A DNA stretch of 64,000 nucleotides from Polyangiaceae bacterium (GCA_050287085.1 JBNKBE010000018.1:32001-96000), one strand, 5' to 3'; shown: positions 31,340 through 40,400, counted from the stretch's first letter. Notes: generated from the sequence alone by a model not told the origin. Numbers and translations are program-made.

Positions 31340-32902
31340 TCAGTCACGACAATTTCGCCTGACAGAGTCGAGATCGAGATCCTTGCATTCCGCGCCGGCG
31401 GGCGCCGCAAAGAGCCGCCCGCTCTCGGTACAAATGCAGGCCAGAGTGTCGTCTTGCTGCACGACGCACTCGACGCGCTCACCATCGAACGAGAGTGGGC
31501 AGACAGCTTTTGCTGGCTGGGACAGACAGGCATCAAAGACGTCGACCGGTTCTAGACCGCAGCCGGGCGCTGAAAACATGGTGCCGTCATCCATGCACTG
31601 ACACTGGGTATTGCCCGCGCGGGTGGTGCAACGAACACCAGGATACGCCTCTCGGTATAGGCAGGAAGACTCGGAACAGCTCTCGAAAAAGACCGCTTCC
31701 GCGGCGGAGTCCAGTGGATGACAAGCGTCCAGAACCATTCGCGCTTCGCCCCCGGGACAGTCGCAAAATAAGGCGTCATTGCGATAACCGTGGCAGTCCA
31801 TCTGGAGCTCCGCGAAGGAACAGGTCTCCAACAGTCCAGCAAAACGCCGACGGCTGAACCAACAGTCCGCCATGGCCCGAAAGAAGTCTGCCTGCTCCGA
31901 CGTGAGAAAGGTCTGCTCGCGAGGCGCGCAGTCTGGACACGCTGCAACACCACGCTCGCTCTGCATCACGTTGAACTCGCAGTCGCAACTTGCGACTCCG
32001 GGAGCGCTGATCGGACCGCACGCATCGTAGCGAATCATGCCGTCTTCGGGCAGATCTTCGTCGAGATGAACCGCCCCCATGATGTGTCCAAACTCATGAA
32101 CGAGCACGTTCTTGTCGGCGCCCTGGCTCAGCATGATCACGGCGCCGTCCGTTTCGTCCAGCGGTCGATCAATACCAGCGTAGCCCCCCGCCCTATGAGT
32201 CCAGTTGGAGATGCTAACCGAGAGTACACCGCCTATCGCCAGAGCGAATCCGCTCAGCTCCGCGAGTTGCTCTTCCTCTTGCTGACGACTTCGGACGACG
32301 GTGTATTCCGGACCGTCGGCGAGAAAGAACCCGAGCGACTCGAACACCGTTTCAGTGGTTCCCAGCACGGACTGCATCTCAGCGTTGAGGTGCTCCACGG
32401 CAGCAAGCGCGACGCAATCGCTCCACACTACCTGTTCTGTTTGCCGACCTTCGGTGTCGTACGCGACGCCGCGCGGGCAGCCGTCAAAGTCGTCTCCCGC
32501 CGCAAACTGGGTCACGTCCAAGGCGTAGTCGGCCATTCCGACGAAACGCACCGGGATCGGCAGCTGGGGAAATCGCCCGGACTTGCCCAGCGACTCGAGG
32601 GCAGGGGGCGTATCGTCTCCCAGCAAACGCAACGAGGACGACTCGTCATCGACCTTCGCATCCCGCCGGCGCTCGGGCACCGGCATGAGCTCAACGGTGT
32701 CGGATCCGCCATCGCGGGGCTCGTCTTTCCCACCGGAAGGCGTCGAGTCATTCTTCTCGTTGACAACGACGGCGGAAGGCGGCTCGAGGGTGCAGCCGGC
32801 ACTGCCGAATAGCAGCACCAGCACAAGCCGGCCGAGGTGCCCCACGCGATAGCCCGCGCGGCCCGGATGGCTCTGACGGTCAGGCTCACGGGAGTAGATC
32901 AC
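31340..32902 (-). CDS. Metzincin-like lipoprotein with three C-terminal Cys-rich repeats
   Basis: Lipobox SAG-C; HEFGHIMGAVH; downstream NVM Met-turn; GTGA overlap with the cimA stop. Confidence 0.75.
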   Translation of the reverse strand: MIYSREPDRQSHPGRAGYRVGHLGRLVLVLLFGSAGCTLEPPSAVVVNEKNDSTPSGGKDEPRDGGSDTVELMPVPERRRDAKVDDESSSLRLLGDDTPPALESLGKSGRFPQLPIPVRFVGMADYALDVTQFAAGDDFDGCPRGVAYDTEGRQTEQVVWSDCVALAAVEHLNAEMQSVLGTTETVFESLGFFLADGPEYTVVRSRQQEEEQLAELSGFALAIGGVLSVSISNWTHRAGGYAGIDRPLDETDGAVIMLSQGADKNVLVHEFGHIMGAVHLDEDLPEDGMIRYDACGPISAPGVASCDCEFNVMQSERGVAACPDCAPREQTFLTSEQADFFRAMADCWFSRRRFAGLLETCSFAELQMDCHGYRNDALFCDCPGGEARMVLDACHPLDSAAEAVFFESCSESSCLYREAYPGVRCTTRAGNTQCQCMDDGTMFSAPGCGLEPVDVFDACLSQPAKAVCPLSFDGERVECVVQQDDTLACICTESGRLFAAPAGAECKDLDLDSVRRNCRD

Positions 32903-34518
32903 TCTGCCTCCGATCCGTCACCTCGTTCCGTGATCTTCCGATGCACGGCGAAGTCTACGGCGTCTACCAACGCCTGCCAGCTGGCCTCGATCACATTTAC
33001 GCTAACGCCGAGGGTGGCAAAGCGCTCGCCGGCAAAGCGATGATCGACCAGGACGCGCACCTTGGCTGCGGTGCCGTCGGCAGTGTTGACAACCCGGACC
33101 TTGTAGTCTTCGAGTGTGAGCTGTGAAAGCTCTGGGAACGCCGGGACCAACGCGGACATGAGCGCATGGTTAAGGGCATCGACTGGGCCGTTGCCCTCGG
33201 CGACGCACAGGTGAATCTCTCCTTTGACGCGAACCTTCACGGTCGCCTCCACCAACGCCTCGGCGTCATTGCCAACCCCGATGCCATGAACTCGATAGTG
33301 CAACAGCTCAAACGCGGGCTGCCATTCACCCAGATGACGGCGAACCAATAAGTCGAAAGAGCCGTCCGCGCCCTCGAAGGAATAGCCAGAATTTTCCTTG
33401 TCCTGGATGTCTTCTAGAATCGGACCAACCACTTCTGGCTCGCGCAACTGAGGATAGCGATTGGCCAACTTGGCCAACAAGTTCGAGCGACCGCTCATCT
33501 CGCTGATCAGAATACGACGCGTGTTTCCCACATCCTCCGGAACGACGTGCTCGTAGGTCCGCGGGTTACGCCGCACCGCGCTGACGTGAACGCCCCCCTT
33601 GTGCGCAAACGCGGCTTGCCCAACATAGGGTTGGTTCAACGGTGCAGCTAGATTCAAACGTTCCCAAACATAGCGAGAGACGTCGCGAAGCTGTCGCAGG
33701 TTGCCCTCGGGCAAACATCGATACCCCAACTTGAGTTCAAGATTGGCTATGACTGCGGTCAAATCCACGTTTCCGCAGCGTTCCCCAACACCGTTGATGG
33801 TGCCCTGGACCTGAACACACCCGGCTTCAACTCCGGCGAGGGTATTGGCGACCGCTAGACCCCCGTCGTTGTGAACGTGAATGCCGAGAGCCCCTGCCGG
33901 AAAGCGTTCCCGAACGGTGCGCACCGCGCGCTCTACCTGGCTTGGAAGCGCTCCGCCGTTGGTGTCGCAGAGAATGACGCGCTGCGCGCCTGCCGCAAAA
34001 GCCGCGCCCACGCACTCGAGCGCGTAGCTCTGGTTGTCCAAGAAGCCGTCAAAAAAGTGTTCGGCGTCGAAGAAGACCGGGCGCGATGTGGCGCCAACCA
34101 GATAGGCGACCGATGAGCCAATCATGTCGAGGTTCTGTGCCAACGTGACCCGAAGCGCTTCGCTCACGTGGAGATCCCACGTCTTGCCGAAGATGCAACA
34201 CAAGTCGGCCCCCGAAGCGACCAATGCCGCAAGGTTGGGATCGGCCTCCGGCGCGTTCTTCACATGGCGCGTGGAGCCGAAGGCAGACACCTTCGCACGT
34301 CTCAAGGATCGCTGAAGAATCTGCTCAAAGAACGCGAGATCTTTTGGATTTGAGCCGGGCCACCCACCCTCAATAAAATCAACACCAAGTTGATCGAGTC
34401 GAGAAGCGAGCTCGAGTTTGTCGTGCAGGGAGAGGTTGACGCCAAACGCCTGCCCTCCATCTCGCAACGTCGTGTCGTAGATCTCGATGCCGGTTGGCTC
34501 GCACAAGCGGTCTGACAT
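32899..34518 (-). CDS. cimA: Citramalate synthase
   Basis: YDTTLRDG, IEGGWPGSNPKD, FDAEHFFDG, HVHNDGG, AFAHKGGVHVSAV, GNGPVDAL; start moved to ATG 34518. Confidence 0.92.
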   Translation of the reverse strand: MSDRLCEPTGIEIYDTTLRDGGQAFGVNLSLHDKLELASRLDQLGVDFIEGGWPGSNPKDLAFFEQILQRSLRRAKVSAFGSTRHVKNAPEADPNLAALVASGADLCCIFGKTWDLHVSEALRVTLAQNLDMIGSSVAYLVGATSRPVFFDAEHFFDGFLDNQSYALECVGAAFAAGAQRVILCDTNGGALPSQVERAVRTVRERFPAGALGIHVHNDGGLAVANTLAGVEAGCVQVQGTINGVGERCGNVDLTAVIANLELKLGYRCLPEGNLRQLRDVSRYVWERLNLAAPLNQPYVGQAAFAHKGGVHVSAVRRNPRTYEHVVPEDVGNTRRILISEMSGRSNLLAKLANRYPQLREPEVVGPILEDIQDKENSGYSFEGADGSFDLLVRRHLGEWQPAFELLHYRVHGIGVGNDAEALVEATVKVRVKGEIHLCVAEGNGPVDALNHALMSALVPAFPELSQLTLEDYKVRVVNTADGTAAKVRVLVDHRFAGERFATLGVSVNVIEASWQALVDAVDFAVHRKITERGDGSEAE

Positions 34519-34674
34519 TGGGGCTCCGAGCGACGAACCTACTCTCAAGCGCCCGCGCAGCCTAGAGATCAGGCCGCCCGAGCCCTGTCTCCGGCTCGGC
34601 GGCCTCCCGCTTGCCAGAACCAATAGCTCAGGGTCGGCAAAGGCCGCGGCGCATCGCCGCTCAGGGGGCGCTCA

Positions 34675-36267
34675 TCATGCCGTGGGAGCGGGCTTGTCGG
34701 CGGTGCTGTTTTCGGTAAGGGCCGCCTCAAAAGCCTCCATTTGACCCTCTTTGCCGATGCGCTCGATAGCCTTCTCGGCAAAGGTCCGAGTCTGCTCGTC
34801 CTCGGAGCGTCGGGCTGCATCCAAGCGACGCGCGACGCGCCGCTTCGTCGACTCGAACTCGGTCCGCAGAAAGGTCGCGACCAACTTGGCGTAGGAAGCG
34901 GCTTCAGCCTTGCGATCCACCTCACCCTCAGCGAGCGGAGGCATCGAAACGAACTCCTCGCCAGCTGGAGCCATCGTATCCGGCTCGGACGCAATGGCAA
35001 CTTGAGGCGGTTCGGGCACCACGGGCGCAGGAACCGACGCGGGCCGCGCTACGGCAGCCCGAGGGCTTAATTCCGGCACTTCTAGATCGTGAGCGCGATG
35101 CTGTCCGCGTCGACGGCCACCGCCGCCGGTGCTCCGAGTGGAAGTCTTGAAGAGATCGAAGTCTTCGATCTCTCCTAGGTCGAGGGTCGATATGGAGCGC
35201 TGCAGCTTGTCGCGAAGAGTGCCGCCCTCACGACGTGCGTCATTGACGATCGCCTGCACGCCCTCCGGCAGGGACTTGGTCGAGCACACCAGGCGCAACA
35301 CTGCAGCCCCATCCTCAACGGGCTTCTCCGTACGGTAGACGCCCATGTAGACGGCACCACCCCCCGTCTCGTCCTTGAGTTGCTCGTTGAGCTGCTCGTA
35401 AAATGAGAAGGGTGTACTCGAAAGGACCTCTTCGGAAGCTTCAAGAATTACGCCCATATAGGAGACTTCCTCGGCGGAAAATCCAACGGGCATTGTGGGA
35501 CTCGACTGCAGAGACTCTCGGACACTTTCAACGACCGTTTCGACGGTAAGCGCCGGCACCTTGGTTTCCGAGTAGTTCATAACGCCCGGCGCCAACAGGA
35601 GCGAGCGCAAGTCCTCACCGTCAATGGTGCGAATGGGATGCACCCCGGGGCGAGAGTTGAGGCGATTGAGCGCATCAAGCGGGTGAACGATGACCTGGTT
35701 GACGATCTCGAAGTACTTGTCGAGAGAAACCCCACCGTGCGTATGACTGAGTCGAGTGTTGTCAGCGAAGATCCAGCCGATGCCATCCAGCTTCACCAAG
35801 TCGCTCACGGCACGAACCGCGTTGACCTTGGCAATGCCGCTCTCGTATTCGTTGGGCAGCGTGGTCAACGTGATGATCGGCAGCTCCAGTTCCTTCAAGA
35901 CACGGACCAATTCGCTCACCGAAGAACCGGTCCCGCCGCCGAGTCCAGCGGTGAGAATGACGACGTCTGCCCCTTCGGAATGAGCTGCTACGGCGGTGCG
36001 AATACGCTCCGCGTTCTCGTGAATGCATTCTCGTCCGTAGTTCAGATCCGCGCCAGCGCCGTCGTACCCATCGATGCCGACATACATGCGCTGTTCAGCG
36101 GGGAGCGAGGTTGAGCTGTTGCCAGGACCCAGCGCGGACAGGTCGGTGTGAGCAGTGTTGAGCGCAATGGCGCGATAGCCTAGCCGCGCGAACTCAGCTG
36201 CCAAGTTGCCACCAGCTTGCCCAAGTCCAACTACTACCAAATCCAACGCGCGGTCTGCGGGCTTCAT
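34675..36267 (-). CDS. Divergent tubulin/FtsZ-superfamily GTPase (CetZ/TubZ-like) with C-terminal extension
   Basis: VVGLGQAGGN, LNTA..DL, GAGAD...G, signature AGLGGGTGS, LP...E...N, DN, IDGEDL; RBS GGAGGT. Confidence 0.88.
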   Translation of the reverse strand: MKPADRALDLVVVGLGQAGGNLAAEFARLGYRAIALNTAHTDLSALGPGNSSTSLPAEQRMYVGIDGYDGAGADLNYGRECIHENAERIRTAVAAHSEGADVVILTAGLGGGTGSSVSELVRVLKELELPIITLTTLPNEYESGIAKVNAVRAVSDLVKLDGIGWIFADNTRLSHTHGGVSLDKYFEIVNQVIVHPLDALNRLNSRPGVHPIRTIDGEDLRSLLLAPGVMNYSETKVPALTVETVVESVRESLQSSPTMPVGFSAEEVSYMGVILEASEEVLSSTPFSFYEQLNEQLKDETGGGAVYMGVYRTEKPVEDGAAVLRLVCSTKSLPEGVQAIVNDARREGGTLRDKLQRSISTLDLGEIEDFDLFKTSTRSTGGGGRRRGQHRAHDLEVPELSPRAAVARPASVPAPVVPEPPQVAIASEPDTMAPAGEEFVSMPPLAEGEVDRKAEAASYAKLVATFLRTEFESTKRRVARRLDAARRSEDEQTRTFAEKAIERIGKEGQMEAFEAALTENSTADKPAPTA

Positions 36268-36524
36268 TCACTACCTCCAAAGACGTCTAGCACCCGGTCG
36301 TTATATCCGCTTCTCGATCAGAATCGACCCCCAACGTCAGGGCGTTGGCACTTTTGAGCCCAGGCCTAACACCGGTTCAGTAACGGCCCACCTGCACCCA
36401 CCCAGCCATGAATGAGCCGATTCCTCGGGTCCCGGTCCGGCGACACGCCCGATAGCCCCGACACCCGACTCAAATCGAAACGGGTGTCATACGCCGACCC
36501 CGCGAACTGCCCGGCTTGCCGTCC

Positions 36525-37319
36525 TCAGCCGCCGAAGTAAAGCTCGACGCCCAACATCACGTCGACCGCATCAACGCCATTCTGAATATCGAGCGAGCGA
36601 ACGCGAGCATATAGGTCAGCGCGCCGCTCGAGCGTATAGCCCACGAAACCGCCCAGCGGCATCGCGAAGCCGGACGACTCTTCGAAGATCCGGTGAAAGC
36701 GGAGTCCGAGCTCAGGTCCTGCGTAGACCTGAGGAGTGATCTGCACGGGAAGATACGCCGGCAGGTACACGCTCAAAGCCGATCCGCTGTCGCCCAACTC
36801 GAGGTCCACAAAACCGCCCACGTCGAGGCGAACGTCATCCGCCAGCCGGAGCAGAAACGGAGCCCCCAAAGTGACAACAGATAACCCTTCCCCTCGGAAG
36901 CGAGGCTCAAGCTGAGCGAAGATCCCGTAGGCGGTAGAGCCGCTCTGCACCTGGTACAGCCCGTAGACCCTGGGATTCTCGAGCTGGAGTTGGGGCGAGA
37001 GCATGACCGGCACCACGCCTCCCAGCTCAAACTCACCGCCGATTCCGATCGAGAATCCGGGATTGAGCACGTGAAAGTCGCTCCCCAACGAATGCTTGTA
37101 CTGAGCGTCGTGGTCCGGCCAGCGCGGCCCCCCATCAAAACGCATGACGCCATCAGGCAATACCAGAGGTCGGCTCAAATAGTCGGCGCCAATGCCGGAC
37201 ACCTGGGCTAGTGCTCTTTCGGCGTGAAGGCTGACGAGCCCAACCATACCCCACAAGGCCGCGGCCACAGCACGAGCCCCCGGACGCCAGCGCAAAGACC
37301 CTTGAGGCGACAACACCAT
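36525..37319 (-). CDS. Hypothetical exported protein, probable outer-membrane beta-barrel
   Basis: Signal peptide (ALA-Q), alternating beta-strand pattern, ends GVELYFGG; start moved to ATG 37319. Confidence 0.6.
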   Translation of the reverse strand: MVLSPQGSLRWRPGARAVAAALWGMVGLVSLHAERALAQVSGIGADYLSRPLVLPDGVMRFDGGPRWPDHDAQYKHSLGSDFHVLNPGFSIGIGGEFELGGVVPVMLSPQLQLENPRVYGLYQVQSGSTAYGIFAQLEPRFRGEGLSVVTLGAPFLLRLADDVRLDVGGFVDLELGDSGSALSVYLPAYLPVQITPQVYAGPELGLRFHRIFEESSGFAMPLGGFVGYTLERRADLYARVRSLDIQNGVDAVDVMLGVELYFGG

Positions 37320-37414
37320 AGCCCGGAGCTTACACCGCCTGCCAGCGACGTCCAGCTCTGCTGCGGAGCGAAGCGCATCTGAGCGCAGTCCGTCCAGCCG
37401 AGCCCAACGCCTTC

Positions 37415-40400
37415 TCAGCGTATTGGTACCTGGTGCAAGAATGCCTTCAATACGCGACCGGTGGCAGTAGTGCGACGAGCCACCCGTGCACATGACCCCT
37501 CAGCCACAACCTGCCCGCCCTGCTCACCCGCTTCTGGTCCGAGCTCGAGAATGTAGTCGGCGCTAGCGATAACCAATGGGTGATGTTCTATCACCACCAC
37601 CGTGTCCCCGCGGGCCACCAGTTGATCCAGAACAACAAGCAAACGAGCCACGTCGGCCTGGTGCAGTCCGGTCGTCGGCTCGTCAAGTACGTACAGTGTG
37701 GGTTCGTGGCGGCTGCCAGCGCTCAGCTCGTGGGCCAACTTGAGACGCTGAGCTTCGCCGCCACTCAAAGTATGCGACCCTTGGCCTAGTTGAACATAGC
37801 CGGTTCCGAGCGCGCTGAGCGTGGCGAGCGGACGCGTTATCTTCGGATGGCTCTCGAAGAGGTCCAGCGCTTCGTCCGCACTCAGGGCAAGAACATCCCC
37901 TACGGAAAAGCCTCGGAAGCGAGGCGTCAACGTCCTTGGTTCGAAGCGTCGCCCAGAGCATACCGGACAGGGCTGAATGGCGTCCGGGAGAAAACTCATC
38001 TCGTGGGTGATTACGCCCTGACCCTGGCATTCTTCGCAGCGGCCCCCTTTGCTATTGAAGGAGAAGCGCGCAGCGCCAAAGCCTGCCGCTCGCGATTCCG
38101 GCAAGTTCGCGAATAACTGACGAACCACATCCCAGATCCCCAAGAACGTTGCCGGAACCGAACGCGGACTACGGCCAATCGGGGCTTGGTCGACGCTGAG
38201 CGCCCGCCGCAGCTCGTGGCAGTCTCCGAGGCGCTGATAACAACCGGGCTCAGGGGTCACTAGCCCCAGCTTCTGCCGCACTGCAGGCAAGAGCACGCGA
38301 TTGATAAGCGTGCTCTTGCCTGAACCGCTTACGCCGCACACGACGGTCAGGCGCTGAAGTGGAATGCTCACATCAACGTCTTTGAGGTTGTTTTCGCTCA
38401 CTCCGAACAATTCGAGGCGCGGATGCCCCTTGGGCAGCGGAAGCCCGTGTCGAGGAGTCGGAGGTTCCCGCAGGCACGCGGCCGTGGGGGAGGCTTCGAC
38501 GGCCAACACCACCTCGGGCGCGCCGCACGCAACCACTTCGCCCCCCATTCTTCCACCTGTCGGCCCCATGTCGATGAGATGATGCGCCGCTTGAATGACG
38601 TCTAGATCATGCTCGACGACAACTACGGTTGAACCGAGCGCCACGAGAGCACGCAGATTGTCAATCAGTCGCGCGGTGTCACGCGGATGAAGTCCGATGG
38701 TGGGTTCATCGAGCACGTACAGCGCCCCTGTCAGGCCAGCCCCGAGCTGCGCGGCAAGCCGCAGACGCTGCAGCTCGCCCCCGGATAGAGTGCGGGCGCT
38801 ACGAGCCAAGGTCAGGTATCCAAGTCCGACGCGCTCCAAGAACGACAGCCGCCGCTGGAGCTCGTCGACGATGGGCGTGCTGACTTTGCTGTGCCGGGGT
38901 TCGAAGCGAAGACGCGCGACCCACTCACCGACCCGCGTCACGCTCATCTGCATGACCGCGTCATAGCCTATTCCATCCAACCGCACGGCCGCCGGTATTG
39001 GGTGAAGACGCGCCCCTAAACAGGCTGGACACGGCGTTCGCTTCTCCTCCTGCTTTCCGCGCCCAACGCGCGTCACTTCTATCAGCTCCCCACTGCCTTT
39101 GCATCGCGGACACTGGCCTTGAACCGTATTGAACGAAAACCATCGCGGGTCGAGCACCGGCGCAGCGAAGCCACACTCCGGGCAACCGCTGGACGTAGCC
39201 AAACGCCGCGTTTCACCGTGCGTGGGTTGTACCAGCAGCGTACCCTTGCCCCACTCCAACGCACAGCGCAACGCGGACTCGCTCAGCTCGCGAAATGGAA
39301 TCTCCTCCGCAACGATGAGATGAATAGAGTGCTCTCGAGTCCGCGCCAGGCGCGGCGGCTGGTCCGTTTCCACGCGCTCGCCATCGACGATCGCTTCGGT
39401 AATACCGGCGCGCGACGCCGCGTTGAAGACGTCCAAGTACGTTCCCTTGCGGCCTTCCACTACCGGTGCTAGCAGCAATCCCTTACCGCGCACCTCGCGC
39501 ACTCGTTCGAACAAGGCTTCGGACGTCCCGGCGTATAGCGGCAAGCCATGAGTCGGACAATGCGGTGTTCCCAACTTGGCAAAGAGCAGCCGTAGATAGT
39601 GAGCTAGCTCGGTAACGGTCGCGACCGTTGAACTGGCCCCGCCCCGCGACAGACGCTGTTCGAGCGCGATGGCCGGTGGAACTCCCGACAGGGCGTCAAC
39701 ATCGGGCTTCGGAAGCGTTGGCAAAAAGCGGCGCGCATAGGGGCTTAGCGTTTCGAGAAAGCGCCGTTGGCCCTCGGCGAACAGCACATCAAAGATGAGA
39801 CTGCTCTTTCCGGACCCGCTTGGCCCAGTGACAACGGTTAGCGCCTGATGTGGAATGCTGACGCTCACCTGCTTCAGATTGTGCTCGCGAGCATGCGTGA
39901 TCTGAATGGCAGCAGCTTCGACTCGGGTCACAGCGGGTGCGGCGACGGGTAGCTCGAGGGCTGCCAGCGACGCCTTCAGCGCAAGACCTGTCTTGCTGTT
40001 GCTCGTCGCGATCGCTTCGGGCGGTCCAGCCGCACACAGTCGCCCTCCGTCGACGCCCGCGCCTGGGCCAAGTTCAATGATCCAGTCGGCTCCTGCGAGC
40101 AGTCGCAAGTCGTGTTCAACGACCAGCACGCTGCCGCCCCCCGTCACCACAGCTTCGAACGCGTGTCTCACGTGTTCCACCTCGTCTGCGTGCAGACCGG
40201 CGCTCGGTTCATCCACGACAAATAGCGTCCCTTTGAGCCGCTCCGAAAGCGCCCGCGCCAATTTCAGACGCTGCGCCTCACCGCCTGAAAGCGTAGAGAG
40301 CGGCTGTCCTAAGGGCAAATAGCCGAGACCTAGCCGAACCAATGGCATCAGGCCGCGCAGCACCGCCGGCGTATCTGCAAATCGTTCACACGCTTCTTCG

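Follow-up and report, generated by a model that had tools for sequence, protein, structure and literature searches.

Why does a bacterium of the Polyangiaceae keep a second tubulin-like gene besides its ftsZ, and what kind of tubulin does this gene encode? The gene lies on the minus strand of a 64,000-nt stretch of DNA, hereafter the window, and a first-pass annotation made from the sequence alone had described it as a stand-alone CetZ/TubZ-like tubulin homolog on a probable myxobacterial chromosome. The open reading frame specifies 530 aa with no internal stops, its codon-position GC resembles that of its neighbours (GC3 0.69 versus 0.67-0.70), and the product is predicted to be soluble. All the motifs that the annotation had quoted are present in the minus-strand translation, including LNTAHTDL and DGAGADLNYG, LPEGVQAIVNDARREG, and LDLGEIEDFDLF, which makes up aa 362-373. 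The strong GGAGGT ribosome-binding site and the ~260-bp upstream gap noted then are there as well, the gap measuring 257 bp and the GGAG being kept in most relatives. The features are as follows.

34675..36267, minus strand: gene for a TubZ-related tubulin-superfamily GTPase of 530 aa (ORF, Pfam, model, fold and tree)
35266..36267, minus strand: tubulin/FtsZ core, aa 1-334, with GTPase domain, H7 and activation domain (PF00091, Pfam Tubulin, 58 bits against a cut-off of 33)
36208..36228, minus strand: T1 loop GLGQAGG, aa 14-20 (translation)
35923..35940, minus strand: T4 signature GGGTGS, aa 110-115 (translation, alignment)
35608..35634, minus strand: T7 loop IRTIDGEDL, aa 212-220 (alignment with FtsZ DFAD and TubZ DASE)
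35191..35265, minus strand: predicted TubZ/CetZ-type C-terminal helix H11, aa 335-359 (model, fold comparison)
35149..35190, minus strand: acidic-hydrophobic tail, aa 360-373 (conservation)
34933..35148, minus strand: Gly/Arg patch and Pro/Ala linker, predicted disordered, aa 374-445 (pLDDT mostly <50)
34699..34929, minus strand: predicted four-helix degenerate HEAT-like domain, aa 447-523 (model, family profile)
36273..36278, minus strand: ribosome-binding site GGAGGT, 5 nt before the ATG
36300..36328, minus strand: predicted sigma-70-type promoter GTCGAT-17 nt-TATAAC (9-locus upstream alignment; pattern fitted afterwards)
32899..34623, minus strand: cimA (citramalate synthase), downstream (TIGR00977, 639 bits, cut-off 450)
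36525..37493, minus strand: upstream gene, no family (synteny in the genus)

The protein is not an FtsZ. It scores 75 bits against the TIGR00065 ftsZ model, whose cut-off is 295, and has no match to PF12327 (FtsZ_C), for which the FtsZ of the same genome scores 111; its C-terminus bears no FtsZ-type peptide, in keeping with the earlier observation that a DIPxFL motif is missing. The genome holds two PF00091 matches, the window gene and a canonical ftsZ on contig C2, which follows murD-ftsW-murG-murC, ftsQ and ftsA-like ORFs and whose product terminates in DVPTF; the names of these dcw neighbours are our reading of the ORFs, ftsA being matched weakly, by the MreB model. Together with the low FtsZ score and the topology test given below (AU p = 0.003), this separate dcw-cluster ftsZ bears out the proposal of a second, non-FtsZ tubulin homolog on a myxobacterial chromosome. 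A high-scoring FtsZ-type gene is likewise found in 10/10 other carriers tested, and family members are often mislabelled in databases as 'cell division GTPase FtsZ'. What the family has in common with FtsZ is the GTPase fold, the GGGTG signature and both T7 aspartates; it differs in having a T1 Gln, H11 and a locus outside the dcw cluster, and in having neither FtsZ_C nor the terminal peptide.

The position of the family among the other tubulins comes from a maximum-likelihood tree (IQ-TREE, LG+C20, 46 rows, 351 columns), with references taken from annotated plasmids, annotated phages and metagenome loci, and with the labels of 18 rows checked by their Pfam C-terminal domains; PhuZ was left out because of its long branch, and the set is without eukaryotic tubulin or BtubA/B sequences. 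The 15 family rows form one clade (support 100/99), nested in a larger clade (99/96) that also takes in every one of the 9 TubZ rows and 6 unassigned ones, separate from CetZ plus CetZ-like (100/98) and from FtsZ (100/100). AU tests reject grouping of the family with CetZ (p = 0.006) and with FtsZ. A 124-row FastTree, from which L004, L038, L077 and P0187 are absent as duplicates or short cores, agrees with the smaller tree; P0198, initially taken as a family member, falls outside the clade in it. We conclude that the protein belongs to a distinct clade inside the TubZ plasmid/phage radiation and is neither FtsZ nor CetZ. The earlier label of CetZ/TubZ-like therefore holds for its TubZ half and fails for its CetZ half. 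The sister group consists of RepX and phage-like rows with weak support (88/83), and the TubZ branches are long; the TubZ rows are paraphyletic around the family, an arrangement that fits domestication from a mobile element without proving it.

Profile comparisons run in the same order. The family profile matches RepX/TubZ at 4e-35, CetZ2 at 8e-23 and FtsZ at 9e-20; TubZ-like_C (PF22453) is matched by 20/30 members at E <= 0.1, although not by the window protein itself, while CetZ_C (PF21011), which all 8/8 CetZ/CetZ-like references match, and FtsZ_C are matched by 0/30. The suggestion of a possibly undescribed subfamily fares well in that the clade fits no described family, and the family, related to TubZ, is apparently undescribed. 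In the open-access literature we found no description of it and nothing joining Polyangia with tubulin, FtsZ or the cytoskeleton; in the main text of PMC9871819 the only bacteria named as having CetZ/TubZ-like groups are Chloroflexota and Firmicutes, and neither 'myxo' nor 'deltaproteo' occurs there; its supplements may hold unlabelled members. In the ESM Atlas the best match, a cluster of 56 'hypothetical' proteins mostly from Myxococcota, is probably the family itself; TubZ-like clusters from Bacillota and viruses rank next. Two further groups deserve mention: a large phage-like TubZ group with N-terminal extensions near the family (L021, on a 301-kb viral contig, P0206-P0267 and P0323), two proteins of which are fused to a glycosyltransferase, and Chloroflexota-type CetZ-like loci (L081, L078, L112, L128, L134, L142) that often hold two tubulin paralogs within a few kb.

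In an AlphaFold2 model built from 69 sequences (mean pLDDT 87; 93-98 over aa 11-330) the tubulin core is followed by the long H11 at 335-359, disorder from about 370 to 445 and four helices at 447-523, very much the post-core helix, linker and charged helical domain anticipated from the sequence. Its closest fold is B. cereus TubZ (Z 37.6, rmsd 2.8, 341 aligned, model aa 5-356), followed by B. thuringiensis TubZ (Z 35.6), CetZ2 (34.2), CetZ1 (32.2) and c-st TubZ (31.1), with the best FtsZ at 28.9 and tubulins and BtubA at 27.5; the protein has no Pfam Tubulin_C match. By Foldseek E-value, one CetZ and TubZ stand about equal at the top. The first-pass statement that a T1 Gln and an extra C-terminal helix typify tubulin, CetZ and TubZ is upheld for the helix, which is of the TubZ/CetZ type in model and fold comparison, but not for the Gln as a general mark of TubZ: Q17 is found in 64/69 aligned family members, whereas the position is Met in B. 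cereus RepX, Ala in pBM400 TubZ and Gly in phiKZ PhuZ.

How, then, does the family compare with each of the known tubulins? With TubZ/RepX of Bacillus plasmids and TubZ of the clostridial phage c-st (type III partition, TubZRC; PDB 4ei7, 2xka, 3v3t) it shares fold, profile and side of the tree, as well as H11, a T7 D-x-x-D/E and a tail after H11, with TubZ-like_C detectable in relatives; it differs in its ~20% identity, in being chromosomal, lineage-stable and found in Gram-negative phyla, in standing without an adjacent tubR or tubC-like repeats, and in a tail that, unlike that of TubZ, runs on through a long linker to a folded module, HEAT-like or of another kind. PhuZ of phiKZ-like jumbo phages also has H11 followed by a short acidic-hydrophobic segment, a likeness of position and composition without significant similarity, and like the family it has no TubR; in contrast, it is phage-encoded, sits on a very distant long branch and ends at this segment, the knuckle, without an appended domain. 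Archaeal CetZ and the Chloroflexota CetZ-like proteins share the T1 Gln, H11 and the situation of a chromosomal non-division gene beside FtsZ, and CetZ, with its links to shape and motility machinery, is the best functional analogy; the fold match is lower (Z 32-34), CetZ has no appended domain and the family has no CetZ_C. Finally, FtsZl1/FtsZl2 and the GAP1-system tubulins, as parts of PMC2875224 and PMC7159879 describe them, are likewise extra tubulin genes beside FtsZ. FtsZl1/FtsZl2 are marked by Tubulin_2, by a lost T6-H7 or an alpha/beta tail of 300 aa, and by a vWA operon, none of which applies here: T6-H7-T7 is intact, Tubulin_2 is not matched, and no vWA, GTPase or HSP70 operon was found at the window locus. 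Matches to GAAD (E 0.03) and to MoCF were dropped, both being below cut-off with unsupportive context.

Are the residues of a filament-forming GTPase in place? Judged by alignment, the GTP-binding loops and the T7 residues are kept. D216 and D219 of T7 align with both acidic residues of FtsZ DFAD and TubZ DASE, and occur in 67/69 and 62/69 aligned members, respectively, with Glu at the second position in 4 more; in a broader set of 46 they occur in 38 and 33. The FtsZ T7 Asn position is T214 here and S/T/A/G across the family. Among the window gene and 8 close relatives (36 pairs, uncorrected, with synonymous sites near saturation), H11 with the acidic tail has 92% identity and a pN/pS of 0.075, compared with 79% and 0.21 for the core, 0.74 for the linker at aa 395-445 and 0.38 for the helical domain, and linker length differs widely between relatives. 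H11 and the acidic tail are thus the most conserved segment and, on these sequence comparisons, are under the strongest selection; within the tail, L362, L372 and F373 are found in 64/69, 57/69 and 50/69 members. According to portions of PMC3678025 and PMC5322520, assembly of PhuZ and TubZ requires the tail that follows H11, by which each subunit holds on to its neighbour, and the tip of the TubZ tail binds TubR. By analogy, we infer that aa 360-373 may be the counterpart of the PhuZ/TubZ 'knuckle'.

These residues bear on the idea that the protein is a GTP-sensing switch or a static scaffold instead of a dynamic filament, its tail serving as signalling output. Such a reading would suit the HD-GYP and degenerate MinD-like fusions considered below, as well as the kinase or regulator genes seen near 7/26 loci, genes that are common in myxobacteria anyway. 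It would also suit the persistence of two catalytically degenerate members (L018:892-2670 in G355 and L019:1081-2925 in G380), which have lost the T3/T7 motifs, so that catalysis would not be needed by all members. However, the T7 aspartates work exclusively in trans, between adjoining subunits, and their retention in nearly all aligned members, along with H11 and the acidic tail being the most conserved segment, makes a switch or static scaffold quite improbable in our estimation. In L018 and L019, T1 is eroded as well and the HEAT tail is intact; G355 and G380 also hold a short second FtsZ paralog (L158 and L170, frames of 362 and 347 aa), both of which fall with FtsZ on a long branch.

If the protein is TubZ-like, does it still move DNA? 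A TubZ-type motor could be moving a chromosomal region, a plasmid or a prophage, with an adaptor encoded at a distance binding the HEAT-like tail. That the family nests in the TubZ radiation with TubZ as its closest structure speaks for this, as does the fact that all characterised TubZ/PhuZ proteins position DNA, in the accounts given in parts of PMC5322520 and PMC3678025. The locus points elsewhere. In agreement with the earlier remark that no tubR or tubC is adjacent, the 257-bp upstream gap contains no same-strand ORF of TubR size, only one of 35 aa, while each of five plasmid/phage TubZ controls has a gene of 81-115 aa directly upstream. No iteron array was found in 34400-36700; of 33 repeat families, the 20 largest are two-copy and at chance level. 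Besides, ParB is over its cut-off in 5/5 carriers, as is MreB, none of the observed fusions carries a DNA-binding domain, and plasmids, phages and viral contigs have no close member. Taken together, we regard a surviving role in DNA positioning as unlikely.

The surrounding genes do not reveal a dedicated partner either. The downstream gene is cimA, as first proposed, and the gene order in the genus is smpB-uvrA-unknown-tubulin-cimA-msrA, with cimA in 9/11 genome loci and the upstream gene in 8/11; cimA is not beside the distant members, and since this synteny is confined to the genus we rejected both neighbours as partners. A scan of 26 more distant loci, of which 3 fall outside the clade, showed no specific recurring neighbour; its ORF minimum of 90 aa would miss shorter genes. 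Neither Pfam nor NCBIfam assigns the upstream gene to a family; its product, called outer-membrane-like at first, has an aromatic C-terminus as in outer-membrane barrels. Beyond cimA, 31340-32902 on the minus strand encodes a product of 520 aa, probably a lipoprotein, that contains the zinc motif HExxHxxGxxH and has a Cys-rich tail; its matches to reprolysin and fragilysin lie far under cut-off.

Upstream of the tubulin gene, a GT(A/C)GAT-17-TATAAC element is kept in close relatives at a distance of ~30 nt, with GTAGAT-N16-18-TATAAC exact in 5/11 genome loci (L003-L013), which suggests that the gene has its own housekeeping-type promoter. A consensus promoter/terminator scan missed this element and called no terminator after the gene; a GC-rich hairpin at 34573-34603, after the stop codon, has no T-run and was not counted as one. 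A second element, AGGCCGG(T/C)GGGTT-like, stands upstream of the predicted -35 in L004/L005/L006/L009/L010/L011, is weak in the window, and is possibly a regulator site.

The gene is chromosomal and its distribution patchy. Of 7,999 candidates scored in a family search, 516 proteins reach E <= 0.001, and 100 clusters (50% identity) reach E <= 1e-30. The gene is present in single copy in 16/17 congeners, the one miss being an 87% complete genome, and is carried by 25/201 genomes of the order, whose lineages are mostly all-or-none (11/11, 3/3, 5/22, 2/59, 0/59, 0/20). At the level of the class at least 14/401 genomes matched, the weakest match (G585/L048) lying outside the clade, and at the level of the phylum 7/401 carry the gene. 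Homologs thus occur in Myxococcota, where a survey had been advised, but the family is not confined to that phylum: named members come from Latescibacteria, Fibrobacterota and Zixibacteria. Housekeeping neighbours and a carrier whose genome is a single 4.0-Mb contig (G761) show that the gene is chromosomal; it is retained even in genomes of 2.7-2.9 Mb within the order, and the tail profile finds no second copy in the genome of the window. There were 10 matches in plasmids and 2 in phages, weak and partial and none covering 80%, and 14 in viral contigs at <=28% identity; none of the three holds a close member.

This pattern also weighs on the notion that the gene was captured from a phage and retained as a decoy for defence, its product co-polymerising with the tubulin spindle of a jumbo phage and poisoning it. 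The patchy distribution would suit such a decoy, and one nearest outside group includes the tubulin on the 301-kb viral contig (L021). Defence genes, however, usually turn over fast, whereas this gene is near-fixed and single-copy within lineages (the genus, and 11/11 in another family), is surrounded by housekeeping genes and has a conserved housekeeping-type promoter. We consider a decoy function very improbable.

What the filament might carry is perhaps best approached from the C-terminal domain. The tail of the family profile matches alphaRep HEAT repeats, and HEAT_2 is over cut-off in three relatives (P0163, P0170, P0145); the window protein alone gives no HEAT match in Pfam and is without the last half-repeat of these relatives, and one subclade has no HEAT-like domain. 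The isolated tail has no Foldseek match at E <= 0.001, and its best Z of 8.0, to HEAT/ARM solenoids and designed repeats, is a level common for helical bundles. We therefore describe aa 447-523 as degenerate HEAT-like according to the model, and infer that it may serve as a docking module.

The C-terminal module is exchangeable within the family, judging by the architecture of its members. Seven distant proteins (P0182, P0184, P0187, P0192, P0194, P0217 and P0321; one cluster member is named from Zixibacteria) carry no HEAT domain and continue instead through an acidic linker and one transmembrane helix (hydropathy 2.2-3.0 in 7/7) to a module that matches Bdellovibrio Bd1075 (PDB 7O21, E 1e-38), Csd6 and Pgp2, with an NTF2-like Cds6_C over cut-off in 6/7. 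Bd1075 is presented in parts of PMC8938487 as a curvature-generating wall enzyme targeted by its own NTF2 domain. In the fusions the catalytic Cys column is lost in 7/7 and the His kept in 1/7, so the module is likely a wall-binding pseudo-enzyme, and these proteins would possibly make a direct link from filament to wall. PilM is fused to two family proteins, over cut-off (163 bits versus 133), and there is one fusion each to HD-GYP and to a MinD/FlhG-like ATPase whose P-loop is degenerate and whose match is under cut-off (the PilM, MinD-like and HD-GYP fusion proteins being P0169, P0308, P0248 and P0202). P0182 and P0169 fall within the family clade in the 46-row tree, and P0194, P0202 and P0248 in the 124-row tree. 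A family match at G786:C187:2687-3826, in a 1270-aa open frame, is possibly another fusion. The fused relatives are only ~24-35% identical to the window protein and come from other phyla where named, so that the envelope role they suggest may not transfer to it, and a search of its own genome with P0187 found no Bd1075-like match.

The same fusions would be compatible with a division accessory acting at the septum alongside FtsZ, where it might, for example, guide wall trimming or mark the division site: wall-enzyme folds and MinD-like ATPases fit division too, and PilM has an FtsA-like actin fold. Yet in the loci that we read the gene is never inside the dcw cluster, the FtsZ terminal peptide is missing, and the gene was not found in whole families of the order (0/59, 0/20); we think a division role rather unlikely.

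Our preferred reading, which we hold to be probable while keeping considerable reservation, is that of a domesticated TubZ-lineage, GTP-driven filament that positions protein cargo at the cell envelope by means of a tethered HEAT-like domain. After domestication from a plasmid or phage, the core would assemble head-to-tail with GTP into dynamic filaments, in which D216/D219 of T7 complete the active site of the neighbouring subunit for hydrolysis in trans, and H11 with the acidic tail would clamp the adjoining subunit in the manner of PhuZ/TubZ. In place of the TubZ segment that binds the TubR-centromere complex, the protein would have acquired the linker and docking domain, from which we take the cargo to be protein, not DNA, and the filament would display the tethered domain and carry its cargo at the envelope. 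The envelope in this scheme is borrowed from the distant members fused to a membrane anchor and a wall-binding shape-enzyme fold, or to PilM. The protein would then have a motor like that of TubZ and a purpose perhaps like that of CetZ, being of the TubZ lineage but outside the TubZRC systems.

The known bacterial tubulins are FtsZ for division, TubZ/PhuZ for mobile DNA, and the rare BtubA/B. If the reading above is true, one more cytoskeletal system would join them, a TubZ derivative that is chromosomal, stable within lineages and fitted with interchangeable cargo domains, and a DNA-partition motor would have been rewired for protein cargo. In its widest form, which we offer tentatively and consider doubtful, this would mean that bacteria have a third tubulin cytoskeleton, derived by domestication from the partition motor of a plasmid or phage and comparable to archaeal CetZ. 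In myxobacteria and in several phyla without cultured members, its plug-in C-terminal modules (HEAT dock, membrane-anchored wall-binding shape enzyme, PilM, MinD-like ATPase) would put the machinery for cell shape or pili in place.
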